From positions 200,756,001-200,820,000 of the forward strand of contig CM097885.1 of assembly GCA_044892525.1 (NCBI GenBank): a stretch of 64,000 bases of DNA. Reading direction: 5' to 3'. Below, piece after piece: positions 16,928 to 64,000 of the stretch; position 1 is the first letter of the stretch; each line of letters begins with the position of its first letter. Below the pieces are notes generated by a model that had not been told where the DNA came from, made no database searches, and saw nothing but the letters and a program-made list of their open reading frames with translations. The DNA comes from Schmidtea polychroa. Taxonomy: Eukaryota. Made by a program: the position numbers and the translations under genes.

Positions 16928-16976
16928 CTAGATAAAAGAAAAGATCAATTAATTGCTGAGAAAAACTGCAATTAAC

Positions 16977-17251
16977 CTTAAATCTAAATTAGGTTTGAAT
17001 AGATTCTTTACTGAATTCGGGCTTTTAATTGGAACAAATATACGTTTTTCTTCAGATTTTGTAATATGATTTAAAGATGTTTGTGAAGTTTCAAATGATA
17101 CATTTTTGGGCAATGTAGCTTTTTTTAGATAGACATTCCGAAAACAAACGGAGCAATAATAATGCCATGAAGGGTTACCATAAAATCCACAACCATTTTT
17201 ACAACGAAGATCTTTGTCATCAACTTTAATTGTAGAACGCTTACTGGACAT
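16977..17251 (-). CDS. RABGEF1: Rabex-5 exon 1 (A20-type zinc finger)
   Basis: MSSKRST...LRCKNGCGFYGNPSWHYYCSVCFR matches the A20 ZnF of Rabex-5; GT donor at 16976. Confidence 0.9.
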
Positions 17252-18009
17252 TCTTTGAAAATAGTATCACTGTAAAATCCAATTATTTATGTTAAATAAA
17301 AATGTTTAAATTTTAAATTATGAATTTAATATAATTGTTAAAGTGAACGTATAAAACAATCGAGACAAAGTATTTTGTTATAAAACGAATAGTAATTAAA
17401 TATAAAAACATTATAAAATGGCATAATTGAATATCTTTAAATTACATAAATTATATTTTTGAATTTAGATCTAAAAAATTCTATTAAAATAATAAATTTT
17501 TTTGAAATTAAAAATTAAAATACTTTATAATGCGAAAAAGAATTTCAAAAAGTTTATTATTTTTTCAAATAGTTCATTTTCTTTCATTGAAATATTCATG
17601 ATATTCTAAAATATAAACTCTATTATAACACATTAAAAATATATTAAACCGGAAAATTAGTAAATTTTTAGTTTATTTTTCTATTATTAAAGATAAATAA
17701 TAAATATTTCATTTTAAATCCCAGCGGCAGTCCTGTAAATTGTAAATATAACAATTTCCTAATCAGTTTTCGATAAGTTAAAATCATCTATTAGGCAAAG
17801 AACAGCTCCCTCCATTAAAAACTAATTAGTTCGGATTTTACAGTCACACTTGTAACTTAAATGTTACTTTTCTCATAACATCTTCGTCATTAGTGATAAT
17901 CAAGCTCACTTTTGTTGAATTTTATTGCGTGAATTTTACTTTTTGAATTTTACTGTTGACTGGATAGGACTTCGACGATTTAATTTAATTTATATAAATG
18001 AAAAAATAG

Positions 18010-19144: not shown

Positions 19145-20272
19145 AATTGAAATCAAACTAAATCAATATAAATTGCTCTTTTTTAAACAAACTAATTACT
19201 AATTCATTAATTTTTTTTAAATTAATTTCGCTAAAAATTTACAAAATTCTGTTTTTTATATTCAAACTTTAAAAATTATAAAAGTTTTGAAAGTTCTGGA
19301 TAACTGTCGACTGAGGGAATTGATTTATATCAGCAAGCACAGTTTTTTTTAGTCCTACATTTCAACGTTGGAAGGTGGTATCTAATTCCTGTTTTTTAAA
19401 CTTCGTGTTTATTTGTGGATTTCAATTCTTACTTAGATGGTTTTCGGATCTTGGTTATGAATATTTATGTCATGGGTGCAATGGGGTTCTGACACAACAA
19501 AGTTTCCTTCACCGATATCCAATTTTTTTACAATCATTAAAACATTTTCTCGTTGTTATCCACAAGCTTTTTTTACCTATAAACCGCTGATAAAAAATAA
19601 CATTTATTTAATTAGTGACATGAATTCACTTAATTTTCGTGCACTTCATTTGATCATTTTTTCTTATAAATAAGCAGCTTGTTTTTTGGCCTTTGAACGG
19701 CGCTTTTAGATACAGAAAATAGTTTGATATAGTTTCCAATTGTTGGCATATGTGGGGAAAGAAAATGTGCACACACAATTTCCCTACCTATCAAACGTCA
19801 GTATTCTGCTCAGACCATTCCCTCACACATTCCATATGATTATTCATATATTCCCACGTATGAGCCCGTGGTGATGTTCCACGTTGGTGATGCTCACACG
19901 GGTCGACAAAGGTTAGCAGGTGAGCCCCTGCCTTAGGACTACTCCTAACCCCTGCTCGGTTCGGGTCCTACGGTGCCTTAGAAGGTCTTACCCTTGTTAC
20001 TCATATAATTCAGTCCAACCTCGGTCCAAAGGGGACGACATTTGAGTTCATATCATATCTCCAAAATCACTTTCCTATTTAAATCAATCAACGCAATTCA
20101 CACATACAATTAACATACTCAAAGAAACCGAACAGTTGTATTGAAACAAACGATAACGAAAAAACATTTAAAGGGATATTCACTATTGACTGAATAACAA
20201 CCAAACATTGAAAATTATACGCCAGACAATGTCAAGTTCTTAGAGTTCTTTCTCAATGCAGGGAATCGAGAC

Positions 20273-21049
20273 TCATGAGAAAGGTTGTTGTGAGAATGCT
20301 TCTCCTTCCGCGAGCATTTCGTCAATATCGACGGGTAAATAGTGATCCGTGACATATTTAATTCCTCCCGCCGGAACTATCTTAAAAATCTCCTTGGAGG
20401 GAATTGAATGATTCGAGGATATTTCCTTTATGGTGGAGTTAGCTGCGGATAACGACGCTTTGAGAGCTGCCATCGCATCTCGGCGTTTCTGGTTTTTCTC
20501 GGCTCGGGTTGGACGTTTCCGTTTGCGAGATGATGGATGGTTATCCGCGTTCGAGGTGACGACAGGTGCTATTAAGATGGGAGCTAAGATTGAATCGGTA
20601 GGTCCACCTACCAAAGGTTGATAGCTCGATAACGTTGGAGCCGGAACTGGTGGCAAATATGAACCATGCCCTTGACAGCTGGTGGTAGTCAATTGAGGTA
20701 CTTGATGATGAAGCGGGAAGACATTTGTACCCTCCAAGACGGGAAACTCCCGCACCCGCTTGGCCAGTTCCGCCTCCGTATAAACTTTATGGAGGGCCTC
20801 GGACTGGGCTTTAATAGTCAGCCTTTGGCATCGGCTCTCTTCCAGTAGGCTGTCCCTACAGTGCTCCAGCCTGAGGATCTTAGCCTTTTCCTCCTTCATC
20901 TGTGGCGGGGAGAACCACGTTCCTTCATAAAGATCTATCCTCTTCTTGAGGGCCCCTATATATAAATGAAGTTGCGCGATGTCCGAGTTCTTGTCAGAGC
21001 AAGAGAAACACGGACGAAGTTCTTTGGATTTATTGGATGGTGCTGTCAT
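20273..21049 (-). CDS. Unknown 258-aa protein carried by element A
   Basis: Intact ORF starting immediately after an acceptor (ttctag|ATG); homologs at 41940-42664 and ~31345-31597. Confidence 0.75.
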   Translation of the reverse strand: MTAPSNKSKELRPCFSCSDKNSDIAQLHLYIGALKKRIDLYEGTWFSPPQMKEEKAKILRLEHCRDSLLEESRCQRLTIKAQSEALHKVYTEAELAKRVREFPVLEGTNVFPLHHQVPQLTTTSCQGHGSYLPPVPAPTLSSYQPLVGGPTDSILAPILIAPVVTSNADNHPSSRKRKRPTRAEKNQKRRDAMAALKASLSAANSTIKEISSNHSIPSKEIFKIVPAGGIKYVTDHYLPVDIDEMLAEGEAFSQQPFS

Positions 21050-23337
21050 CTAGAAAATAAATCATGTTTCACACTTAAAAGCAACAATCATTATCCTATT
21101 AGTTGAAATTAGAACCTATACTCAGAAAATTCATCCATCACGCCAATCAACAGCATCTACTAAGATGACTTGTTTCACTCATCCGCACATTCCACATTCA
21201 GTCATTTACGAAACAGCATTCAACCGCATTGCTTTAATCAAGATACTCAAGAGAAGAAGACGGGGAATATTAAATTCAATTTATTACTGAAAAATCTTCA
21301 ATTTACTCTATATAATAAGGAGTTGTATGTTAATTTCTATCTCAGTGTTAACCCTAAGGTTCATAATGACGAGTTAAAATTTAACAAATGCAATAATATG
21401 TGGAAGTTAAATTATATCATTAACGTGGAAAAATTCAAATTATGCCAAAATGCATCGAAAGTTAAATTATACAAAATTTGTAACCGGCGCTATATTCGTC
21501 GTCATGGTGACGTCTACTTGTGTGTGTGGGTGCATCAAACTCTCAGTGCTGGCGATGCGAGTTCGTGTGCCTAGGTACGATAATTTCAACTCACGCTTTT
21601 TCTCATAGTGTTCATTTCATCTACCTCAGTGTAACAGATGTCATCTACTCATTCGTACTACCCACTGTCTCTTTCTCTCCAGGAGCTGTCGTCAATTATT
21701 ATGTAATACTACTATTATGGATGAAATCTATTGCCTAACTCGAATTGTCGTTTAGTGGAGAAGAGATTAACTATGGGGTGTATAAGTGCGTGTAATGTAC
21801 GAGTCCTAGTGGCTTATCACTTTGTCGGAGACGTCATGAGTAATTTGTCGTAGATACAGCACTACCATAAGACTGACAGAAAATTCGAACTGGAATGGAC
21901 AACCTAACTCTCTTATCATACGATCGGCTCTAATCAACATCTACCTACGCATCTACACAGTCAGCTCGGTATGTACATCAGTCGGTGCTTATCTCTGTCA
22001 GAGTTTCGTCGGGTATTCAATTCGGGCGGTTATCATCTGCCTAGACTTCACTCCTCAATTCACTGATAATTCTCACAGCGATTCCCTTGATTCAAATAAT
22101 AATTAACTGATAAGTCTGATAGCGATTTCTTGCGCTTTTGTAGAAAGTACTCTGATAGCTTCTCCTGGTTTATTTACTCGATTTTCGGGAAAACGACGCT
22201 TATCGAAAATTCAAGGTCGACAATCTCACTTAAAGTACATCGGCGAACGGGTGTGGGCGCTAATGTCCTCCTGATCTAAATCGAATGATGTCTCAAGAAC
22301 GGTCTATTGCCGGATTCCATTTAGAGCTATTGGTGTTGTGAGCAACAAAGATTCATTCTGACCACTCTGATCGACAAGCGGATATCGGACACAAGAAAAT
22401 GCTCTCTTATCGAGGTGGATTTTTATTAACAAGTTGCAAATGTAACTGTGCTTTTCTTTTCAATCAGAATCGTCGTTTGGAAATCTAAGTTGTCTCCACA
22501 TTTCTCAGAAGAACCGGTTAACTGGATATAATGACAAAGAAAAATTCTACAAGCGATCGTGATCGGTGAAGGAAATTCTCACTGTGCAATTAAATTCTCT
22601 AAGCTCCTGAGTTTCCTCACCCCTCATGACCACCCAAGAAGGCATTCATTGCTGCCGCCGTTCTTGCACCGTCATGAGGGACAAATCGACCCTTTCACAT
22701 TTCGATAATCAAAATTCACATGCAATTATAATGATGATAGATAATAAATAAAAACAAATTACCAGACGACCATATCATTTGGACTCCAAGTGTGATGCTC
22801 CCTCATTCCCAAATCACCAGTTCAAATCCAGCATTAATTAGTACTTTCTCAATTTACGTCAATTCTCCTCCATTCCAAAAATTTCGCAGCATCTTCGTGA
22901 CGCATGTCATAGCAATTCTTCGCGTCTACGCTCTCGCATTGGCATCACACTTGAAGTTACCAGAGGATACAGTCGTCGGCACCATGAAGAAAAAGCCATT
23001 ATGTTTTAAATAAAGCTTTATTAACGAAATTATTCTTGTCTATTCATAAAAATTTATTAACAAATAATCATAAATATATATTAAATTCAATCCTATCAAT
23101 CATCAATAACTTAACATACCTTGAGTTCGAATTACTAGATCAAATCGGTTGATGCTAAAATGTTCTCCTGGATAAATTTAATGATGGTTCACTGTAAGTC
23201 CTTTTCTAAAATCGGTTTTGAATTAGTCTTCTGTAATAGCTGTAAGTAAGTCTTGAAATCTACAATCTGTAGAGATTTTGTTAAAGTGGTCGTGATTAAT
23301 GGAAATATTTTTACCTGTAGAGATTTTGTTAAAGTGG

Positions 23338-23392
23338 TACTCTACTAATTTTTCGCGTTTCTTATATACTATTTTTCGTCCAATCAGGACGC
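23338..23392 (-). promoter_or_regulatory. CCAAT + TATA promoter of element A, pointing inward
   Basis: Minus strand ctgattggac...gtatataag; same arrangement in element C (~44837-44895). Confidence 0.6.
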
Positions 23393-24699
23393 GTCTTGGC
23401 TTGTAATTTTATTATTTATTATTATTTTTATATTTTTATTGTAATTTGTTAGCTTTTAATAACTTAACTTAGTACTTATTATTATTTTATTTATTTTCTT
23501 ATTTCTGTTATTTTTTTCCTTATTTTTTCGTATTTTTCCTACGGTTTTATTGTTATTTTTTGTAACATAATTTTGTTTTAATTAGACTTATAATTGGTTT
23601 TATTTTTATTTTGTTTTTATGGTAATTTATTTTCTAACTTTGTTATATTACTTCTATTTTGTCTGTTGGATATCTTGGATTTTATCTCTTTTTGTCTTGT
23701 TCTTACATCTTAGGGGTTTATTTATTTTGTTACTTATTCCAATTTCTTTTCTTAATATCTTATTATTCTCCTTATTTATTACTGCGATTTTACTGTAATT
23801 TATTTTGTATCTTATTTGTTTATTTACGGGGTTCGTCTTCTTCCGATTTGATCCAGTTTTTCAACTCCAAAACTTAGCCCAACACAATGCCACTACCTTT
23901 TTCAAGTGTGTTTATTATCTCAAGCTTTTTTTTCAGATGAGTTGGATTTGATTATGAATTTTCATTATTGCTATTTTTAATTTTATCTTAATCTTCACTT
24001 TCAATATTTCGTAAATGATTAGAATGATAAAATAATATGAATAATAATTTCTCTTATTAAATTCGACGCGAAATTAGTTTTATCATTTAAAAGCTAATCA
24101 GTCTTATCAGAAAAATTATCATTATAGTATATATTCTAAGAATTCACACTGAAAATACGAGTAAAAGGACTTTTTTTATACATTTCTTTTATGAAAGCTA
24201 TCTACAACAATAAAGGTAATGAGTTTAGCTGCAAATATTACTGAATGAATCGTCTTTTGTTGACCAAGTATTTATATGAGTTTTTCTGAAATTTACCAAA
24301 CCAGTCGAAATTCTATAATATGCTCGTATTTTCTATTTTTATGAGTCAAAAACTGTCAGCCGCTGGAAAACTAATGACTATCAAATAGCCAGGCCGTCGA
24401 CAGACGCATCGCTCAAAGTTCACGTGCAGCAACAATACTTTAGTTAAGTTTACTTGCTTACCTTGTTGTTAAATTTATATATTTGCTGTGCAGTATTATG
24501 TTCTCAAACTTAAATAAAACGAATTCAAAGATAATATATGATTCGTCTTTTATTATAATTGTTCAATAACATTATTTTTTATTTAAAAGATATAGATAAA
24601 TAGTTATAAAGAAGTAAGCCTTACGATGATAATAATGACGATGTTAACGATCAGGCTGATGAGCCCACGCCTAGTACAACTAAAAATTTCCCTTCTCCA

Positions 24700-38289: not shown

Positions 38290-39992
38290 CTATAAAAATA
38301 TCAAAATTAATGTATATAAATTAAAACAAAAATTTTGGCACATTTAAAAAAATGAGAACGCCATATATTCTAATTTAAATCTATTTTATGGGCATGTTAA
38401 ATATCTTCTGTCAGACTAAAACTAGTCTTATAAAGGCATTGACGTGATACTATTATGACATAAATTGTGTCACACAATTGACATTTTAATTAAACAATCA
38501 ATAAATTACCAAATTCCACTCTACAACATTTTCATCACTATTAGAAGTTTGGTTTCTTAAATTAATCACATCCATATTTTAAAAACAAAACAAAACTATA
38601 TTTTGAAAAACAACACAAAAATCACTATTATTAAAACAATCACTGTTTTTAGCTTAGAGGATATTTTCGCAAGCATGAGTTAATATTTGAATAGGGAATA
38701 TTCGTACACAAGCATTCAATAAATAGTTTATATTTTAATCTTCAATCATTCTTAAATATATTTAATTTATTATTTTAATTTATAATTTTATTATTTACTT
38801 TAATTATATTATTTAAATCTATTTAAATCTGGAAATTAAATACTTCTTCCATTTAATTACTTTCACAATCACAATATTCCTAACCAAATTAGTGATAAAA
38901 CAATTAACTTTTGATATATAATATGTTGCATGGAATTAAATGCATTTTAAGATGTCACTGTCAAAAATTTATTAGAAAAACATGGAGGAAATTTTTTTGA
39001 GAATCGAAGAACTCTACTTTGAGTTGTAGAGAAAATGATGAAAAAAATTCGTAATATTGGTTTATAAAATTATATAAGAAATTTAATATTTCTATAGAAT
39101 TTCAGATATTTATGTTAAAACACTGACTTTTTGCGAAAATGAAGAAATTACAAATAATTTAATTTTTTAAATATTTCACACATTTCTTTTCAAACTTTGA
39201 CTTTCTGTGAAGGTGAAATTTCAAATATTCAACCAGGTCCTTCTACGTCTTGATTTCAAGACGAAAAATAAAAAATAGTAATTTTTAATTTAAAAAACAA
39301 TATTTTGATAGAATTTCAAAACATGACAAAATTCCATTATTTGATGTCTTCGAAAATGGAAGATTGTTATGAATTTAGAAGATAACTGAGAATCACTAAA
39401 AAATCAATTGAAAAAATAATTTACAAATACAAAAATCTGGAGAAATTTCCAAAGGAAAGAGGTGGCAGCAAATAAATTATTTCATAAGAACAGGGAAATA
39501 AATGAATTTAAAAATATGTATTTGTCGATTACTTTCTTTAATAAATTATAGTTAAAAATATATCTAACTTACATAATATGGAAATAATTTCAAAAAATAT
39601 CCCATGTATAAATTCCGAAAAAATAAGCTGAATAATTAAAAATTATAATACAAATTGAAAGGGTAGAATTCACGTTTAAGTTAAAACTGGATATTGCTAA
39701 AAAACATTTAAATTTTATATATCAGATTACATAAATTTTTATATAAATATTTAAATTAATAAATTAAAGTAAGTTTAAAATATAAAAATAAATTAAATTA
39801 TATTAAATATTAAAATAAATTAAACCAGCATTGAAATCAGCATCAAAATTAAAATTATAAAAAAACCTCGAATAGATTGTTTGAATATTACAAACAAGCG
39901 CAGTTTTTTGAATAAAATAAATTTAGTAATTTTATTTGTTTAATTTATTAATTATGGAGATTGAAAATGAATTCAACGTTGTTGCGACTAAC

Positions 39993-41033
39993 ATGGCGAC
40001 CACGCCAACAAACCTATTGATTAGCACGTTGCTACCAGAAAGATTCCACAGAGACGACGACCTGGAAGAATTCATCTAAGAATGCCAAAATATTTTTAAT
40101 ATTACGAAAACATCTGTCAAGATGCAGATGGTTCTGGTTACCACACTGTTGGATAAACCATTATACGATGAATATGAAAAAACAGAAGGAAAAACATTTG
40201 AAGAGAAGCTCATATCATCATTTTCGAGGCCAAAATCATTATTCGAAGACTTAAAGGAAGCTCTAAATTATGAACAAGGATCTGATTCAGCAGACCGCTT
40301 TATCGAAAATGTAGAGAAATTAACCAAAAGATTATTGCGAGATGAGTGGAACGAAGAAGAAATTAAAAAGTGCCTGCTCATGAATGGGGCTCGAGAGAAA
40401 AAAGTTAAAAAGGAAATAGAAATGCAAGAACTAAAGACGTCAGAAGAAATTAAAAGCACAATTAGAAAAGTTGAGAAAGTGAATAAAGCTATAAACCATG
40501 TTAACTCCATCCGACCTATAACATACATGAAACCTGTCAAAACCTACAGAGATGCCGTTCAAAGACCCGCACAGACAAATACGATGCCAATGTCAAAACC
40601 ATTGGAAGCGACTAAGAACGTCGTATGCTGGGCATGCCAAAAACCAGGTCATTTAAGCCGAGAATGTACTATGAAGAGGAGGATTCAGTGTTTTGGATGT
40701 GGATTATATAGACAAGTACGCCGAGAATGTCCAAACATTCAGTGTAGGAGATGCCATCTACAAGGTCACAAAGAAACTGAATGCTATACAAACCTAGAAA
40801 GATTTAAGCCGAAAATGAATCATTACGGAAGAAATAATGCAGCACACCGAAATAAAGGGGGTCGATTTCAACAGAACAATCAGCATAACAGAAGAGAGGT
40901 AGCAGCAATTGGAAATCAAGATGCAAACTATCAACTGAATTATTCAAGTGAAGCCGAAGAGAAATACGACGAAATGCAATACCCAAACGAGGAAGCTCCA
41001 TCACAGGAGGCGATGATAGGAGCCATTTATTAG
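39993..41033 (+). CDS. Gag of element B (one in-frame stop near 40078)
   Basis: MATTPTNLL...; CWACQKPGHLSREC and CRRCHLQGHKETEC zinc knuckles. Confidence 0.85.
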
Positions 41034-41373
41034 GTAATTTTGATTTTGATGAAAATGCTGGTTATAATAATGTAAATAATTTTTATAATGTAAATAATTT
41101 GAATAATGTAAATAATTTGAATAGTGTAGATAATTTTAATTTTTTTTAGTAAAGATTTATGTAATAATATGGATGATAAAACTAATTTTAATGTTTATAA
41201 AAGTAGCAGTATAGATCATAGAAATGAAAACAGCAAAATAATGTATAGCGATGAAAGAACAGGAGAAAAAGTATATAGTTTCTTAAAAATGTCATTTGAT
41301 ATGAATGAAGATAAAATTGGGTGGATTAATGAAATTTCCAATAGCATAAAGAACAAAGTGGAACGAAATATAT

Positions 41374-44300
41374 TGTTGGCGGGTAACTACTCAGATGACC
41401 CCCCTTTGTTCCGCGTTTAATCTAGAGGATGAAATGCCCACATCGATTTCGCTCGCCTTTATTTTTGTCATCGCTGAGCAGGACCCGTACATAACCTACA
41501 CTCCAGCATAGCACCCGTGAGTTGCGTCACGTTGGAACTGTGCGATGCCGGCGAGACGCCAGTAAGCAGGTGAGCCAGCTCTTTCGGACTACTCCTTACT
41601 GAGGCCTCGACTTCCTAACCCCGACTGCCGATAGAAGGACTTACGTCTTCTCACTCTGTCGCCCGTCGCGATGCCCCTAATTGGAGTTTCTAACTGACTA
41701 ATGCTCCTCGTTTCGTGAGACTCTCAATGCTGTTCACCTATCTCGTATTCACTATTTTACGACAAAACGAAACGCATATATAAATGAAAATGGTTTATTT
41801 TTGGCATTATCATGCAAATACATCGAGAGCTTATACATCAATATTTACAAGAACAAGAAAAACATAAAGATAAAACAAAAATGATTTCGGCAGGTGTTCT
41901 GGTCTCTCTAGAGAATGAGGCCAATTTCAGGGGAGATCCTCATTTCTCCCACTCCGAGTCGGCGAGTAACTCGCTTAGATCAAAAAACTCGGCGGCGTTT
42001 TCTTCCCATGTCACCCCGGCGGCGGAGATGACTCGCCCGGAGATCCCGGCTGTTAGGTCGACCATGGTTGGATTATTGTTACTGCTGACTGGAGCGATGG
42101 TTGACGATGTACACTGCTTGACCGATGCCCGCTCCCGTTGTTTCCGTTTGCGTTCGGCTCGAGACAGTTGCCGACGTTTCGGTTTCGAAGTTGCAGGTGT
42201 TTGCACGGCCGATGCCGATGCAAAGTTCGCCTGGACCCTACTAGTCCCGGTGACTTCAATGTCTGGGTTTCTGGGAGAAAGCTCGGTCTCCACGCACTCA
42301 CGGCAAGACTTCCTGAGAGGAGATGAAGACCTGACAGAGGTATCGTGGTGCGCTGGGAAAAGATTGCTGGCTTCACCAATTGAGATCTTCGCTATCTTCC
42401 TGGTGGTTGCTGCCTGGACATATAATTTATGCAGCGCTTCCGACTCTGTGCCCGGCTCTCGGCAATTAGTGCATCACAGCAATGCTCACTTCGATACAAC
42501 TTCTTCCGGGTCTCCTTCATCTGGGAGGGACTAAACCATGTCCCCTCCAGCTCGTCTATCTTCCGTTTGTACTTTCCAATTTGAGCCTGTAGGTCTCTGA
42601 TGATCGAATTCTTGTCTGCACAAGAAAAACAAGGCTTGAGAATGGTTTTTGGATTGGGTAACATCTGGAGAGGCTAGGAAGAGAAGATGAAAAATAAAAA
42701 TAAATCTAAGTCAAATTGGAACGTCTCATCCGGTGACAATCATACTTTACTGACCATAGGTAGTTTACAGACAAACCGGGTTTATTAGCCTAGAGAAATC
42801 CCTTATACAACGGGTCTTGTATACTTTGGGTCATCATTCATATGATCATTCATACAGAGCTTTACTGAAGGAAGATAAGGTATAACCCCTGATAAGGGAA
42901 ACTACAAGTTAATGAAATAAAAAAAATTAATTAGTTTACTTGAAAAGATCAAACAGCCTGGAAAGGTAGTTTAGATTAAATTAAAGATGTACCCTAAGCA
43001 AATAATGTGTAGATCTGTTATGGAACTATGTCAATAACTTAGAAACTTGTTATTTATAACAGGCAGGACTCTATTAATTCCCCTTCAATTATTTATTGAT
43101 GATAATTAAGACCTTTACAAGTTGTTTGCAATAATTTAGTCAGGATAAATAAGAAGTTTTCTAATTAAATTATAATCATTTATTCATGCACAACCCAAAC
43201 TTGTTCAGATTAAATGAATACACAACTTCACGCAAGTGAACCCTAATTAATTATCTGGCTATTGCCTACTACTTCCAAACGGTGAGAATCTAGCGTCTGT
43301 CATTAGCTTGATGGTAATTCAGCTGACACATTATGTCTGATTCCCGGCGATTTATAGTGCATGTGGGTCTATATACTACATTGAACCTCTGCCGTGAGTC
43401 TAAAAACGTGTGATCACCTGGAGCTTCACTCTCACCTACTTATTAACAATCGCGATTTCTGACAAATGTTCTCATGCGATATTTTATGTTTGAGTATGCA
43501 TGCAGATGTAGTTCCTCCGTAGCATGTAATGCTAATTGATCAGCTGTGCACACACCCCAAATCCTTCTTCTCACACTATTGACATGCGAATTATCAGGGA
43601 AATTTTGGAAAATTAAAATTCTATGCATCACTGTTATAGAAATTTTTCTACTTCGTGGACGGTTTCTCTAAAACCCCTCAACTACCATTTCTCAATTCAA
43701 CTCGTGGCCCTCGGTCATCATCAACATATGCTATCTATTCCTATCGATTTGAAAATTTATTGCTTGATTCAACTCCGGATTGCAATTCAACGGTAGACCG
43801 AGAGTTCATATTTAATCTGTAAGCATTATCACGATAAATTGTTTTCTAAAAATTACATTTTTCCTGATTGGAGTTACTTGTGCTTTTAATAATAAAAAAA
43901 ATTGTTTGAGACTATTTATTTTCGTAATTCTATATAACTACCGCTTTAAGAGAAACTCATGGATGATGAAATGAGTAATCACGAAAGTTCGTTGGCTGGA
44001 AACCGTAAGACTAGACTTTGAGTAAAATCCGGAACCCCGATAATAGGTCACACATAATATTGCTAACGTTTGAACAGTTTTTGACGAAGGACTTGAATCT
44101 TTTGGCGATAGAAAAAATTTGAACGGAGTAAAACGATGTTATGATACGATAGTGCGACACCCTCAATCACTACGCGAATATACAAAAATTTTTCCAATTC
44201 ATGTACTCATTCTTCCACACTATTCTTCTCGCATGATTTTCTATCGAATTTAGTCGCACCTTCAGCGACGGACCCGTGAGGAAGCCCCCACATTACGGCC

Positions 44301-45224
44301 CGAATCAGCTGCGTGATTGAAAAACCCCATGTCCACCGGCTGAGCTCCCGAAGGCACCTCACACCATGACATGGAGTATCTCAACGCCACGTTTCTCGAA
44401 AAATTTGAATAGCATAAAATCACAAATAATAAGATTACTGATGCATAATAAATCATTTATTGTTAAATCACTAAATCATTCAATTACGTAACGCATTTAA
44501 ATCAAACGAAAAGAGAACAAAATTTTAAAAATAAAAATTATAATTAATGCATATATACATAATTATTGCTTAATAGACCTAAATATAAAACGAAAAACTC
44601 CTTACCAAGTATTCAATATAGGCTGAGTCGAAAACACTGGGTCGAATCGGTTGATGCTTGAGTAGAGTATAGATTTAGTTGAAGTTTCTTGATTTTCTGA
44701 AATAGTCCTTGTAAGCTACTGTAAGTCGGTGGCTGTTAGCTGTGAGTTGTTGTTTCTATTGCAATTGTTGGATTAACGGTAATTAACGGTAGTTAAAATA
44801 CACTTACCTATTGCAATTGTTGGATTAACGGTAATTATTATGATTTTAATGTCTGCTTATATATTAATTTTCTATTTACGCGGACCAATCAGAATTGAGT
44901 ACCGCATAATTTTATTATTTTAATTTATTTTCCTTGTTTTTGAGTTATTTCTTCCTATTTTCTTTATTTTTCTTATGTTTTTATTTAATTTCTTTGATTT
45001 CCTTATTATTTGCTACATTTTACGTTATTTTTCGTCATTCTATTGTCCTATTTTAATTTTTCTTAGTTTTATATTTTTTGTTTTAATTCTTATTTTCTAA
45101 TTATTGTTTTTATATCTTATTTTATTGTATTCCTAAATTTGTTTATTTTATTTTGTTTTCTTTTAATCTCTTGCTTATTTTACTTTCTTAGTTTCCCAAA
45201 TTGATTTTCCGACTCAGCCCAACA
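41374..45224 (-). mobile_element. ~3.9-kb LTR-like gene cassette (element C) nested in pol of element B
   Basis: TGTTGG...CCCAACA; 4-bp TSD ATAT; removal restores B pol ...VERNI|FTKDEWKGPR in frame. Confidence 0.9.
41940..42664 (-). pseudogene. Homolog of the element-A unknown protein, one ~19-nt frameshifting deletion
   Basis: PCFSCADKNS...EGTWFSPSQMKE...EHC..ESRAQ/SEALHK; starts at ctccag|ATG. Confidence 0.8.
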
Positions 45225-48200
45225 ATATTTACGAAAGACGAATGGAAAGGACCTCGTATGACTTATCATAAAATGCTAGGTAGACCAAGTATAACACTTG
45301 AAATTCAAGGACGCGGAATCGAGTGTCTATTAGATACAGGAGCACGAGTTAATGTAATGTCTAAAGCAGTACTGGATAAATTGGACAAAGTCGAGATAAT
45401 AAAAACAGATGAAATGCTAAGGTGTGCAAATGACAGTAAATTGGAGACTATAGGAAAAGTTCAAATTGAGGTAAAGATAGGGAAGCTAAGAAAAATAGTG
45501 ACCTTTACCGTCGTAGAAAACATTGTCCCAGATGTTATTGGGGGTATAGAATTACAGAAACAATTCGGTATTGAATTAAGATGGATTCAAGAAGGTGAAA
45601 TGATATCTAACGAACGTATATGTGAAATTGATGCTAAATTTGGGAGGAATATTACAAATGAAGAAAGATTCCAACATGTGATAGAGAAGTTGAAAGTAAA
45701 AGAAGATAAATTGCTTGTAGAAATTATCAAGAGAAATAAATGTGTTTTCATGGCTGATAAGTGGGATGTTGGATGCACTGATTTAATTCAACATAAAATC
45801 GAAACAAATGGCGGACCAATAATGAAAAAGCCCAGAAGACAGCCTATAAACTTGGAAGAGAAAATAAACATGGCCATTAAAAATCTGGAGGATAATAATA
45901 TTATAAGGAAGTGTAATTCACCTTGGAATACCCCTTTAGTGTGCGTTTGGAAAAAATAAAAGAAGGATATCAGACTCTGTTTGGACTTTAGACAACTTAA
46001 CAAAATTACTGAAAGACAAGCGTTTCCGATGCCTAACGTTGACGAGATCTTAGATGCTTTGCATGGTACTAGATATTTTAGTTCTATTGACCTTGGAAAC
46101 GCATACTATCAGTTGAAGTTGGATAGAGATTCACAGGAGAAAACAGCTTTTTCAACGAAAGAGGGGCAATTCTGTTTCAACCGAATGCCGTTTGGCATTG
46201 CGGCAGCACCAGGAACCTTTCAAGAGCTCATGACGAAGATATTAAAGGATTTATGGAAAGACGGGGTAATGGTTTATCTGGACGATATATTAATTTTTAC
46301 TAACACAATGGAAGAACACTATAAACTGCTGGAAAGAGTATTGCAGAAAATCGCAGAAGCTAAACTAAAAATTTATCCTGAAAAATGTCAAATACTGAAA
46401 AGCGAAGTGAAATTCTTAGGCCATATTATAATTAGAGACGGCATCCAAACAGATCAGAGCAAAATTGAAGCTATTCAATCATTTCAAAGGCCGAAATGTG
46501 TGAAAAATTTAAGGAGTTTCTTGGGTATTTGCAACTATTATCGAAAATTTATTAAAGAATACGCAAAGAAGGCAAGAGCTTTAGAGAGTATATGTGGTAA
46601 AAATAGCGACAAAATAATATGGAATGAAAATTGTGAGCAGGCTTTTGAGAATATGAAGTTGGCATTAATAACCGCACCGATTTTGGTATTTCCTGATTTT
46701 TAGAAAGAATTTATACTGGATACGGATGCAAGTTTCGATACAATTGGCGCAGTCTTATCACAGAAGAATGACACGGGATATGAGCAAGTTATCGCATATG
46801 GCTCACATGCGATGAATGACCACAAAAGAGGCTATTGTATTACAAGAAAGGAACTCCTGGCTATATATTATTTTTGTCGGCATTTCAATCACTATTTATA
46901 TGGGAAAAGATTTACACTACGTACAGATCATAAAGCAATAACATTTATGCTAACCACGAAGAAGCCAATTACAGCTCAATTCCAGACCTGGATAAACTAT
47001 TTAAGTAGTCTTGATATAAAAATGGAATTTAGAAAGGGTACACTACATACTAACGCAGACATGTTATCAACGAAAACGTGTGGCACATGTGTACAATGTC
47101 TTATGGAACACGATAATCCTAAAATGGGAAGAATGACAACCAGAATGTTAAATATAATGACTGAAGACAAAGGAGAGGAATGGCAAATGAATAGTGATGA
47201 AATAGAGGAGATTAAAAATAAAATAAGAACGCAAACGAGTGGAAGGTTTATAATAGAGGATAATATTATTTATACCAAAGATAAAAGAATATGGATACCA
47301 GAGAGCAAAAGAAGCGAAATGATTAACAAAACACATCTATTACTGTGCCATGCTGGAGTTGACAAAGTTATCAAATACATACAAAACAATTTTGATATGA
47401 GAGATCTAATAAAACAAGTAAAAACGACAATATCAAATTGCGAATCGTGCCAAAAAGTTAAAGTTGTAAGTACAAAGATGAAAGGGAAACCAAAAGTACT
47501 TGAAGCATCCGAACCCTTCGAGAAAATATATATATGGGCATATGTGGCCCAATGAAAGAAACATTTAACAGGAAAAGATACATTTGCGCAATAATCGACC
47601 ATTACAGCAAATACATCTCGTTAACAGCTATAAATAAACAGGATGAAGAGACAATTGGGAAGATATTGTTAAACAACTGGATTCTACAATTTGGGGCACC
47701 CAAAGAACTACATCTAGATTGCGGGAAAACATTCGAAGCTAATAGCATAAAGAATATAAGCAAAAATGCAGGGTTCGAGATAGTGTATTCGAGTCCATAT
47801 CATCATAATACGAATGGTATAATCGAAAGACAATTCCGGACAATAAGAGATTTTATTAATGCATCGTTGAAAGACGGAAATACAAAAGACTGGGCAGACC
47901 TTATCCCAGATATAGAATATACATTCAACGCAACCATTCAAAAAACAACGGGAGTAAGCCCAGCTGAAATTATTTTTGGTAGGAAAATTGATAGATCAAA
48001 ATGGTATAATGATAGTAGAATCAACAGGAACGATATCGCATTGAAAATTGAAAGTAAAAGACAAAATGAGGAAACAACAACTGCAAGGAGGTTGGATATT
48101 GGAGACAAAGTTTTAATCAAACGAGAAATACGAAACAAGGATCAAGATAGATATAAAGGACCATACACAATAACAAAATGAATACACGATAGCAGTTATA

Positions 48201-48274
48201 TGCTGAGAGATAAAAGTGGGAAGTCTTTAATCAGGAATATTGAAAAGATTAAATAATTTAAAGAAGGGGGATGA
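45225..48274 (+). pseudogene. Pol of element B (PR, RT, RNase H, integrase) with stops and a frameshift
   Basis: LLDTGA, YLDD, DTDAS, HxxxCH-C..C and GPY motifs; stops at ~45959, 46703, 48181; frameshift near 47545. Confidence 0.92.
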
Positions 48275-48959
48275 AAGGGTAGAATTCACGTTTAAGTTAA
48301 AACTGGATATTGCTAAAAAACATTTAAATTTTATATATCAGATTACATAAATTTTTATATAAATATTTAAATTAATAAATTAAAGTAAGTTTAAAATATA
48401 AAAATAAATTAAAATATATTAAATATTAAAATAAATTAAACCAGCATTGAAATCAGCATCAAAATTAAAATAATAAAAAAGCCTCGAACAGATTGTTTGA
48501 ATATTACAAACAAGCGCAGTTTTTTGAATAAAATAAATTTAGTAATTTTATTTGTTTAATTTATTAATTATGGAGATTGAAAATGAATTTGACGTTGTTG
48601 CGGCTAACACAAATATTGACTAAAAGTAATATTTAAAACTTGAATAATGATTTCATATTTATATAAAAAATCAAAATTCAAATCTTAAAATTTAATTAAA
48701 ACCAAAAATCTTAAATTCCTAAAATGACTAAAATATGTAAACTTATAAATTAACTTCATTTCATCACAAATGGTGAATCACCAACCAGTATTAAAGATAC
48801 TTTTATTCCGTATTAACAGGTTTAATTAAAATTAAAATCCAACCATTAAAGCAGACAAACACAGGCTTACAATCTCAGAATAAAAACCATGAGAAGGATG
48901 CTCCGATTTATTTCACAACAATAATGAATATTCTAAACCTTGATCTATTTAATTCCACT

Positions 48960-59716: not shown

Positions 59717-60351
59717 TATTATTGCAAATATTAGTGAAAAACCTAAAATATTTACACACACACGTTATGGGGTAGATAATTATTGTGTGTACAATAGGCA
59801 AAAATAATAAATTTTATAAAAATCATGTAAATTTCTTTAAAATTTATGAAAAATCTAAGTGTTTGTGCTATGGGGTAGAGAATTACTATGTGTGTAAAAA
59901 TATGAAATTTTATAAAATTCATGTAAATTTCTTTAAATTTTTTAAAAAATCTATGTTTTCTGTGTGTGTCCTATGGGTAGAGAATTACTATGTGTGTGTC
60001 AAAATATGAAATTTTATCAAATATATGTAAACTTCTTTAAAATTTATGAAAAATCTATGTTTTCTGTGTGTATATGTAAAAATATGATATTTTATCAAAT
60101 TTCTTTAAATTTTACAAAAAATCTATGTTTTCTTTGTGTGGGCTATGGGGTAAAGAATTATTATGTGTGTGTGTAAAAATATGAAATTTTATCAAATTTC
60201 TTTAAAATTTATGGAAAATCTATGTGTGGGTGCCTGTACAGAAAATTGTCAAGAAGAAGCAGTAATTTACAATTTTACACACACACATATATTCGATATG
60301 TATTGTACATGCATTACACATGCCTTGTTTAACACGGGTGCTTAATATGTG

Positions 60352-60413
<62 letters not shown>

Positions 60414-60968
60414 CATCATCATCATTATTATTATTATATATAATTAGAATTCATCCGACAAGATATTTTGTCCCCCTGTGGCTAATGGTCACATTCAACA
60501 TGTTTCAAAGGGTATTTTATTAAATTCTGATCAATTAAAATCAATTATTTTGACGCCATTTTCATTAGTTGCACGAAAATTTTCATCAAATATTATTATT
60601 ATTTTCAAAGATATTAACGCGCGCTGTAAATATTATTATTATATATACTCAGAGTTTATCCGACATGTCTCAAATGGTATCTTATCAAATTCTGACCAAT
60701 TAAAATTAAGGGGTAGAACAAAAATATATTACGTTGCGGTAATTTAAAGCTTAAATATATTTTTAAAATATATTTTGACGCAATTTTCATTATTTTCAAC
60801 ATTTTCATTAGTTGCATGAACATTTTCAATAAATATTATTGTTATAATCAAAGTATTATTATTATTATTATTAGTTGGGTAGAATGAGGAGCCGGGAGCA
60901 AAGACATATTATGTAATTGATGACACAACAAAGGCATATATACCCACCCTCCTTTTTTAATTTTTTTA

Positions 60969-61003
<35 letters not shown>

Positions 61004-61551
61004 CATTATTATTACACTCATACCTCGCTATACGGCTGCTCTTTATACGGCTTTTCGCTATAACGGCCTACTTTAATTACGGCACTTTTTCGATTTACGG
61101 CCAAAAATGTTTCGTTATACGGCCAAAAAAAGTGTGAAATTTATATGGAATTGTATCAAAATGTATTTGATTCGTTATGCGGCGTTTCGCTTTGCAGCCA
61201 ACTTTCTTGGAACGTATCTAGGCCGTAAAGCGAGGTATGAGTGTATTATTATTATTTATTATTATTATTATCAATATTAGTGAAAAACCTAAAATATTTA
61301 TTTTTTACACACATAAGTTATGAGGTAGAGAATTATTATATGTTTGCAATAATTAATTAAATATGAAATTTTATCAAAATTTATGAAATTTTTGAAAAAT
61401 CTATGTTTTCTGTGTTTGCCTTTACAGAAAATTGTCAATAAGAAGCAATAATTAAGGGAAAATTTTACACACATTCTATATCACATTCGATATGTATTGC
61501 ACATGTATTGTACATACCTTGTTTAACATGGGTGTATATTCTTAATATGTG

Positions 61552-61601
<50 letters not shown>

Positions 61602-61860
61602 GTCAGAGATTATCCGACAAGATATTCTGTCCCCTATGGGTATTGCTAGCAAGGGTACTGGTCACATTCAACATGTCGCAAGGGTTTTCGAACAAAGGGT
61701 TTTATCTCTGTTTTATTAAAATTATCTTTCGATTTTACAATGCTTCGTTTTATTATATATACTCTGAGTTTATCCGTCAAGATATTTTTCCCTCTATGGG
61801 TACTGCTAGCAAGGGTACTGGTCACATTAAACATGTCGCAAGGGTTTTCAAGCTTAAAGC
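59717..61860. repeat. Complex local repeat: two long related units with ~60-bp minisatellite, (ATT)n and an ~80-bp motif
   Basis: 59717-60520 resembles 61268-61690; motif atccgacaagatatt.tgtccccct.tg...ggtcacattcaacatgt recurs at ~60450, 61610, 61770 and 63175. Confidence 0.8.
61015..61243. mobile_element. pogo/Tigger-type MITE, 229 bp
   Basis: 22-bp TIR CACTCATACCTCGCT(A/T)TACGGC; TA flanks; inserted in (ATT)n. Confidence 0.88.
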
Positions 61861-62464
61861 ATATAAATGTGCGTTTTATTAAGGTTAGTAAATAATTTTA
61901 AAACTTATCACATGTAAACCCCAATACTATTTTATAATTATTTAAACGATAAAAAATCGAGGCAAAAGAGGACAAGGCGAAGTTTATGCATTTAGTATTG
62001 CCAGGTCTAATGAGCAGTGTCCAAATATCTGTGCCTGAAAGACACAGTGGTTATTTGTTCCCATCCACAATGGTCGCCTGTGCCTCCCCTAAGTGGGGTC
62101 AGGAGAACCTGGGTATCATAGTTCTCCGTACATTACGTCGAGCATGTCTGAGTAGTCAACTACCATCACATTTGAAAAGTATAAAAAATACATTTCAAAA
62201 TACATTCGTCATTTGCACTATAACCAAATTAATTAATTCCCTAACAAGAAGTTACAGAGGCATCCCACTAGTTGGATTACAAACGCCCACCACGACGATC
62301 AGCTGGTAAATAATTAAGGAATATAGAGGACCCCCCAACCCTATTATATTTAATTTACAAAATCCAAGGGTTTATCAATCTTCTGGATTTTGTCGCTAAT
62401 CATTTTTATCTCAAAATGTAGTAATCTCTCCATCTGGCCATTTGATCGTGATTTCATGGAATAC

Positions 62465-63025
62465 ATCTTGCATAATTTTTTTACAAATAGGACGTATTTC
62501 TTTGCTTAGTGACTTGTTTCTTATGCGGCGTCAACTTTCAACTCTCATTGCTAAAATTTGTATTGATTTAAAACTTTTTATCACATTCGTCACATGATTG
62601 ATAAATTTGAGACTAAATTCTGCCTGACTAAATCGAATAGCCTGTCTAGCACCTATTATTTTTGGTATACTTTAGTTTTTCAATATCATTTCTTAGTGGT
62701 ATTCCACCGTAAAACACAGATATCTAAACATAATATATATTAAGGAATTAATTTATGTCTTACATTATTATTCGACATGTATTTAGAGAATCTTTCATAT
62801 TCTTTGCTTATTTGAACTTCGGGTATGACGAGTACTTTACAAGATCTAATTGCTGGAGAATTGCTAAAATATCTGTTTTTCCCATTCCAGATTTTGCTTG
62901 ACACAATACATCCGTTGAAAGAATGGCCTAAGTTTACATCATCCATATTTTAAGTCTGATAAGTAAACATCCTTGTTGAACTTTTGAAGGACACCCACAA
63001 TCCGCTGTTGGCTCTAACATTTGAG
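62465..63025 (-). pseudogene. DDX39: Unprocessed DDX39/UAP56 DEAD-box helicase pseudogene fragment
   Basis: Joined frames give ADCG..PSKVQ, AILSTDVLCQAKSGMGKT, QISKEYERFSKYM|ISVFYGG, DECDK, TPHKKQV and LSKEIRPICKKIMQD|gt; many short deletions; introns retained. Confidence 0.85.
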
Positions 63026-64000
63026 CTGTCAATTTATTTTAGAAATAGGTATATTAAAAACATTTAAGGTATCATTCAGTAAAATATTAGGTAATATAGT
63101 ATTTTTGAGTATTTTTTAGTTAATTTATAAATAACAGTATTTTAATGTATCAATAAAGACCATATAGTCTGAGTTTATCCGACAAGATATTCTGTCCCCC
63201 TATGAGTATTGGCCATAAGGGTACTGGTCACATTCAACATGTCGCAAGGGTATATTAATTAAGGCACATGTATATCAGTTAGAAATTCTTAGGTGATTTA
63301 GTGAGATGATCATATTTATCAGAAATTCGTGAATATTTTAAATGTAACTTACCAAATTCTTATTTCGAGCGACTAATTTATTGGTTAACTCTGTAGTCAT
63401 TTAAAGTAATTTAAAGCAAAAGGTAATTTATTCATCTAATGTTCTTTACAATAGTTAATATAACTTCGTGATAAATACATGATAAATAAATGGATATTCA
63501 TTGATAATTTTAAATTCTTTATCATTTGGAGCAAATTTGTTCGAGGCAAAAAATATTTAAATAAGTCATAATAGAAATATGGCCATCATTTAACCAATTA
63601 AGGTGCTTAGAAATACATATTATAAAGTTACAATTTTTTTCTAATTTAATGAGATGATCATTGGGCGTAATATATCTTTGCGAGAAATACATAGGTTAAG
63701 ATGTTTGAGTAACCAAAACATGGATATTTTGTGCGATCAATTTATGAATATTGGTCAATTTAGTCATTTAAAATAATAATATTTAGCGAAGGTAATTTAG
63801 CAAAATATCATTGAAAGATTTATCTATCCGATAACAATATTCCTTTAATAGATATTCAACTGATATTCAACTGATTTAATTTCTAGAAATCAAATTAAAA
63901 TCATAAATTTCCTTCAATAAAGATCACTTTTTTAGTTGTTATCGATGTCCAACTTTTAAGTCAATATTCCTCAAGTTTTGTCATCGATACCCCCACAATG

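Follow-up and report, generated by a model that had tools for sequence, protein, structure and literature searches.

A predicted first intron whose 3' end repeats exon 1 and is probably rewritten in the course of reverse transcription, in the long terminal repeats of giant gypsy elements of Schmidtea polychroa

Reverse transcription normally erases an intron that has been spliced from the template, and retroviruses generally keep their introns by packaging unspliced RNA. Penelope-like retroelements are said, in work of Arkhipova from 2003, to retain introns; they resemble the elements described below in propagating with an intron near the 5' end and differ from them in the class of reverse transcriptase and in lacking a tRNA-primed strong-stop jump, and they are not known to have an exon-1 copy mechanism. 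Intronless complementary DNA (cDNA) is one cue by which hosts tell retroelements from genes (HUSH; PMC8770142). In planarians, Burro/GYPSM1 elements are giant gypsy-like elements of about 30 kb including their long terminal repeats (LTRs) (PMC6431247). Here we describe a stretch of 64,000 nucleotides (nt) of the Schmidtea polychroa genome (assembly GCA_044892525.1, contig CM097885.1, positions 200,756,001 to 200,820,000 of the forward strand; called the window, in whose positions coordinates are given below), in which two minus-strand cassettes, A and C, each contain two exact copies of a short sequence. We propose, at a probability of roughly 0.8, that this pair represents exon 1 and the 3' end of a first intron of 43-54 nt, and that reverse transcription rewrites the second copy, with the result that the intron would persist despite being spliced.

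The TGTTGGG start, the CCAACA end and the 4-bp target-site duplications mark A and C as solo LTRs, and the match of related elements to Burro assigns them to Burro-type giant gypsy elements. Their relatives form same-strand LTR pairs, 23.5-27 kb apart, flanking gag-env-pol, and one related element measures 31.3 kb end to end. Three paired elements, which were read in pieces, encode gag, an in-frame viral fusion protein, protease, reverse transcriptase, ribonuclease H (RNase H), integrase, ankyrin and MATH, with the enzymes in the order protease, reverse transcriptase, RNase H and integrase and with the internal genes on the same strand as the LTR promoter. In two elements, the Env-like fusion protein (PF24664) lies upstream of the protease in one open reading frame (ORF), between gag and pol. 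Burro/GYPSM1 elements agree with this in their size (~27-31 kb with LTRs), in a gag with CCHC knuckles, in ankyrin repeats and a MATH domain, and in a viral fusion glycoprotein in frame ahead of protease-reverse transcriptase-RNase H-integrase, whereas the LTR introns, the LTR-encoded ORF and the exon-1 repeat present here are unmentioned in the accessible text (PMC6431247).

A previous reading of the window from its letters (the sequence-only reading) had claimed an exact 24-bp repeat with a period of 48 in A (23267-23290/23315-23338) and an exact 30-bp repeat with a period of 52 in C (44756-44785/44808-44837), and both are present. Their chance expectations in the window are 1.3e-6 and 7.8e-10, respectively, on which a chance origin was rejected; an origin as a target-site duplication or satellite was also rejected. 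In line with that reading, repeat 1 on the minus strand starts at TATA+30 in A and at TATA+26 in C, ends in AG and is followed by GTAAAA or GTAAGT, and the GT..AG segments of 48 and 52 nt are such that the predicted splicing would remove exactly one period; the segment behaves as a first intron would. The two repeats had also been called unrelated. They have 10 of 24 bases in common, but they occupy the same position in homologous LTRs, the ORFs of which are ~61% identical, and both are of the form ACC...TTAA[C/T]...YAG. The order inside these LTRs is promoter, exon 1, intron 1, exon 2, ~2-kb intron 2 and ORF, as listed here for A and C.

19741..23884, minus strand: solo LTR A (4,144 bp; ends TGTTGGG...CCAACA; target-site duplication ATTG)
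23385-23380, minus strand: CCAAT-type box of LTR A, from sequence (layout conserved at 1,321 genomic sites)
23368-23362, minus strand: TATA box of LTR A, from sequence (in the layout conserved at the same 1,321 sites)
23315..23338, minus strand: repeat 1, predicted exon 1 of LTR A (24 nt, TATA+30 to AG; putative start site)
23267..23314, minus strand: predicted intron 1 of LTR A (48 nt, GTAAAA...ACAG; precise one-repeat relatives L007, L165, L166, L178 and L179), composed of a 24-nt unique spacer and then repeat 2 (23290-23267)
23120..23266, minus strand: predicted exon 2 of LTR A (donor at the position seen in relatives for which other copies show a precise loss of intron 2)
21050..23119, minus strand: intron 2 of LTR A (2,070 nt, GTATGT...CTAG; related genomic copies show exact GT-AG loss)
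20273..21049, minus strand: LTR-encoded ORF of LTR A (258 aa, function unassigned; ATG immediately after the intron-2 acceptor)
41374..45224, minus strand: solo LTR C (3,851 bp; target-site duplication ATAT; C-type pairs are 23.5-25.7 kb apart)
44890-44885, minus strand: CCAAT-type box of LTR C, from sequence
44863-44857, minus strand: TATA box of LTR C, from sequence
44808..44837, minus strand: repeat 1, predicted exon 1 of LTR C (30 nt; modal start placed at 44832, TATA+31)
44756..44807, minus strand: predicted intron 1 of LTR C (52 nt, GTAAGT...ATAG; repeat 2 is 44785-44756)
42665..44605, minus strand: predicted intron 2 of LTR C, by analogy with LTR A (1,941 nt, GTAAGG...CCAG; may hold internal exons)
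41940..42664, minus strand: LTR-encoded ORF of LTR C (homologous to that of LTR A; a frameshift near 42.4 kb breaks this copy)

We surveyed the genome with a pattern of CCAAT box, TATA box and GTAA donor, which does not require the repeat and in which the donor is therefore fixed. There were 1,321 matches, against 4 with a reversed control. Ninety-one of the first 100 listed sites were read; the other nine (sites already covered, partner LTRs or repeats of the same family) were omitted. At 83 of the 91 sites, the end of the exon recurred in a second copy when at least 18 of 20 bases were required to agree, and 66 sites had 20/20 bases; the period was 43-54 nt in 82 of the 83. The exon 1 sequences of the 74 unique sites fell into 47 clusters at 80% identity. 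Identity of exon 1 was 0.976 to its own repeat 2 and 0.465 to the repeat 2 of other copies, and its own repeat 2 was the best partner in 72/74 sites, indicating that the two copies change together throughout the clade. The co-variation within each family that had been proposed for the two repeats is thus borne out by comparison across many copies.

The limits of the repeat were also sharp. On the upstream side, identity was near background before TATA+29 and rose from 0.53 at TATA+29 to 0.76 at +30 and 0.97 at +31; in some copies the repeat extends a few bases into the conserved U3 (LTR C starts at +26), as alternative starts would give. On the downstream side, it was 0.99 at the AG and 0.53, 0.38, 0.38 and 0.23 over the next four bases. 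Duplication of the whole period predicts that exon 2 opens with the 5' sequence of the intron, and identity had instead reached background within four bases of the AG. The repeated unit thus appears to be the expected first exon, from start site to AG, and not the whole period, and the birth of the intron by tandem duplication, as the sequence-only reading had it, is not supported in that form. Among the 74 sites, the acceptors were CAG (36), TAG (29), AAG (8) and CAT (1), and 32 of 47 clusters have a branch-like TRAY at a distance of 13-23 nt upstream of the AG; shuffled sequences gave a mean of 12.3 clusters and a maximum of 24. If the exon-1 copy is the tail of the intron, exon 1 must serve as initiator, branch-point region and 3' splice site together, and the TRAY in exon 1 is as expected from this double use. 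With its donor, branch-like motif, YAG acceptor and tight short length, intron 1 fits a predicted GT-AG spliceosomal intron.

The junction between the spacer and repeat 2 carries a further mark. In LTR A, an extra G at 23291 closes the spacer directly before repeat 2. Among the 74 sites, the first differing base upstream of repeat 2 was G in 27, against 8.6 expected from the spacer composition (p 1.7e-8), and the extra G was found in 19 of 47 exon-1 clusters. At 122 unique sites, the frequency of G at position -1 of the modal start was 0.28 before repeat 2 and 0.00 before repeat 1, and 0.03-0.13 at the positions neighbouring -1. Reverse transcriptase adds a C opposite the 7-methylguanosine (m7G) cap (PMC6885630), and the extra G carries this known signature as the putative footprint of a copied cap. 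Near-identical copies form 18 groups, and the four bases that precede repeat 2 were polymorphic in 6, 4, 5 and 4 of these groups and those that precede repeat 1 in 0, 1, 0 and 0, compared with ~0.4-0.5 per site in U3 and exon 2, the exon-2 value being 0.49; seven of the 18 groups also differ in period, by which these position-wise counts are inflated. Kulpa et al. reportedly obtained an extra-G result at the first strand transfer in 1997. The present case resembles retroviral cap copying and first-strand-transfer errors in that the extra G stands immediately before the sequence copied from the RNA 5' end, and it differs in the place of the G, which falls within the putative intron at a distance of one period past the U3/R border, and in that the jump would restore a spliced-out segment. 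The repeat is best read as an ongoing overwriting of the 3' end of the putative intron, and not as a fossil duplication.

Strand transfer at the RNA 5' end, which the sequence-only reading had suggested, is the best explanation of the repeat homogeneity; the mechanism depends on the cassettes being LTRs, a fact which that reading had missed. Transcription would start ~30 nt past the TATA box in the 5' LTR, and splicing of the cap-proximal intron would give an RNA of cap, exon 1 and exon 2. Reverse transcriptase would copy this capped and spliced 5' end, often with the cap G. The strong-stop cDNA would then jump to the 3' LTR part of the RNA, in which intron 1 is presumably still present, and pair via exon 2, which would place the exon-1 copy on the last 25 nt of the intron, with synthesis continuing through the spacer, donor, repeat 1 and U3. 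Since the strong-stop cDNA of a spliced end would land on an unspliced 3' LTR at repeat 2, intron 1 would be restored, and the daughter LTR would regain an intron, the 3' end of which would match exon 1 of the same LTR exactly; this end product is what the genome contains.

Under this mechanism, LTRs copied from spliced RNA are predicted to have lost intron 2 and still hold intron 1. This prediction on intron-2-less LTRs was set down before the search for them and after one 3' LTR without either intron (L169) had been met. Its 5' LTR partner has an exact loss of intron 2, with intron 1 present with both repeats and the G; the element has a shared target-site duplication, and its 5' and 3' LTRs are 99.6-99.8% identical in U3 and the tail. 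When the whole genome was searched for a promoter adjoining the ORF, 17 LTRs belonging to 15 insertions matched, against 0 with the control, and exclusion of L212 and L227, in which the sequence from promoter to ORF is not exon-like, left 15 LTRs in 13 insertions. Intron 1 with a 20/20 repeat was kept in 11 of these 15 LTRs (10 of 13 insertions) and absent in four, a retention similar to that of ordinary copies (23/30, see below). For six insertions (L213, L217, L218, L221, L222/223 and L228), comparison with close relatives confirmed that intron 2 is lost exactly from GT to AG, and four of the six keep intron 1. These copies are the best evidence here for splicing of the LTR transcript, and for reverse transcription of spliced RNA, that the genomic sequence offers. 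Intron 2 appears to behave as in Cer1 (PMC3315495) and retroviruses, kept by packaging of unspliced RNA and occasionally lost precisely; intron 1 differs from this in that even copies made from spliced RNA retain it, and in having a copy of exon 1 as its acceptor.

One-repeat (intron-less) LTRs, the occurrence of which the sequence-only reading had left to be looked for, do exist. Among 40 of the 150 listed ORF-anchored copies, 10 were without a promoter by the pattern; of the remaining 30, 23 carry intron 1, in one case with a mutated donor, and seven lack it. In the seven, the sequence was joined precisely wherever a close relative permits comparison, none has the G before the repeat, and they include five solo LTRs (target-site duplications of 4 bp in four and 5 bp in one) and the discordant 3' LTR L169. 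For a pairing test, we took A-type LTRs in which exon 2 opens without G and counted LTRs on the same strand 18-38 kb apart as a pair, leaving out one duplicate row. Intron-bearing LTRs were paired in 35 of 99 cases (99 of 148 matches being listed) and intron-less ones in 0 of 24 (p 2e-4); when a local cluster was collapsed, leaving ~15 intron-less LTRs, p was 0.005. No element born intron-less was seen among the 24 intron-less A-type matches, all of them unpaired. The lack of pairing makes the loss look mostly post-insertional, and we infer that one-repeat LTRs arise mostly later, via deletions at the DNA level between the two repeats. At G000:C1:152.86-153.51 Mb, nine intron-less LTR starts that are nearly identical and of mixed orientation probably reflect local segmental amplification. 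Exon 2 opens with GT in 18 of the 74 copies, so that one-repeat derivatives of these retain a ready donor (L044, L079 and L161); L044 shows a near-precise loss with a few extra bases. Decayed exon-1-like units also occur inside exon 2 of several A-type families (L008, L016, L058, L153 and L219), and are possibly fossils of misregistered jumps.

Other explanations share part of this evidence. The repeat could be a by-product of the same chemistry, in which the packaged RNA is mostly unspliced, this alone keeps the LTR introns, and occasional copying of a spliced end overwrites repeat 2. Such a situation agrees with the fact that intron 2 has no repeat and yet is kept in nearly all copies, with the 11 intron-1-bearing LTRs without intron 2 against 1,321 promoter-donor sites (a rough ratio, because the patterns differ), and with the production of Cer1 genomic RNA by skipping of splice sites (PMC3315495). 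However, the repeat identity of 0.976 in 47 clusters is near the level given by post-insertion decay alone, and the junction differs among near-identical young copies, which indicates that overwriting is frequent and not rare; we consider this explanation unlikely. A start at repeat 2 without any splicing, the G being a cap copied at the ordinary U3/R junction, would account for the G and the variable junction equally well, as this start and a spliced 5' end yield the same RNA sequence. It is nevertheless highly improbable in our view, as it provides no route to the co-variation of repeats 1 and 2 across 47 clusters, leaves the TATA box ~78 nt upstream, and does not explain the GTAA donor, the period of 43-54 nt or the repeat limit at TATA+30/31. 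We give equally little credence to an old tandem duplication which made the intron and whose copies are kept alike by DNA-level conversion or slippage. The GT at the opening of exon 2 and the decayed units mentioned above suggest that the region near the start does undergo duplication, from which the intron could have arisen, but only about half of the period is repeated, the limits coincide with the putative start site and the AG, the extra G is without a DNA-level source, and events at the DNA level between the two repeats seem to remove the intron.

Several points weigh against rewriting of repeat 2 during reverse transcription. The start site, the splice and the unspliced 3' end are predictions from genomic DNA, and all 91 sites of the survey lie in the first 54 Mb of one chromosome. 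The G precedes repeat 2 in only ~1/3 of copies, which are not fully independent. In a test of the direction of copying, with repeat 1 expected to lead and repeat 2 to follow, there was one shared case derived from repeat 1 (L011/L012, possibly one locus assembled twice), and the singletons were 2 vs 2, most sites being without close relatives. The loss of intron 2 is verified on both sides for six of the 13 insertions; of the other seven, L215/216 was checked on the donor side only, with a 1-nt offset, and six are candidates. The intron-2-less copies could derive from RNA in which intron 1 was not yet spliced. The mechanism gives no reason for the escape of the 3' LTR copy from splicing. The second donor was not found in 48 of 74 sites, so that only candidate ends can be given for R and the poly(A) site. 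Finally, intron 2 survives without any repeat, so that unspliced templates can carry LTR introns, and overwriting may be frequent without being essential.

Many A-type copies have AATAAA at ~+260 to +340 and again ~340 nt ahead of the end of the LTR. On the minus strand of the window, one lies soon after the intron-2 donor (23000-23060 and 44455-44465); this one and another after the ORF recur in many copies, and either could end R. Contigs from sequencing runs over 44570-44900 were inspected for four runs, two of which were without result, and the informative run, X1, is RNA by guess only. Some X1 contigs cross intron 1 and the intron-2 donor unspliced, and others seem to join U3, one repeat and exon 2; as they may be DNA, one-repeat copies or graph collapse, nothing is drawn from them.

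In the A- and C-type elements, a conserved 18-mer is found 5-6 nt past the 5' LTR as a primer-binding site, which we take to resemble a tRNA-Pro site; the first 16 nt of the C-type LTR also resemble the primer-binding site (seen with L064, L068 and L069). No polypurine tract was found before the 3' LTR in three elements (L061, L065 and L072), and in the A- and C-type elements a conserved motif that is not purine-rich precedes the 3' LTR instead. The LTR-encoded ORF has 5,252 genomic candidates, and it gave no Pfam family and no atlas match above 0.80; in both A and C, it shows a conserved Cys/coiled-coil N-terminus plus a basic patch. Cargo of the BIR, BCL2 and dUTPase types gave no Pfam match at 1e-3 in 11 ORFs, and PMC6431247 relied on more sensitive profile searches.

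An unrelated gypsy element of smaller size (39656-48571, plus strand; 300-bp repeats 99% identical, gag, and pol with stops) hosts LTR C, which separates its gag from its pol. Since LTR C has its own target-site duplication, the possibility that the cassettes are antisense genes of this host element was rejected. An exon-like ORF with a CxxxCGFYG zinc-finger motif lies at 16952-17266 on the minus strand; we presume the motif to be A20-type and the ORF to belong to a host gene, an intron of which likely holds LTR A. Further gypsy remains are present at 29-36 kb and 54.5-58.8 kb, and satellite-like arrays with units of ~100 and ~160 bp at 59766-63264. The 3' ends of LTRs A and C have a GC-rich block in common (about 19790-20060 and 41400-41700, minus strand), which looks structured.

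We found no account, by title or abstract, of an intron restored by first strand transfer, in a literature in which subscription journals and the original description of Burro are poorly covered, and the accessible parts of PMC8532177, PMC11410931 and PMC4668388 hold nothing on LTR introns. Elements of this kind have been described before, and neither cap copying nor strand transfer is new as chemistry; what would be new is the restoration of an intron by the first strand transfer. It is an even bet, in our judgement, that these elements form a clade of giant enveloped retroelements with a self-renewing intron, in which a capped and spliced genomic RNA gains the benefits of a host-like spliced transcript, the first strand transfer rebuilds the intron in each cycle, elements that lose the intron stop spreading, and misregistered jumps can create introns de novo. 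If the proposed mechanism is true, an element can be spliced and still pass on its intron, which would be a way round intron erasure. The first strand transfer would then be readable as a genomic record, with start site, cap G and junction slips, in over a thousand copies, and it would offer a testable route to the maintenance and gain of introns.
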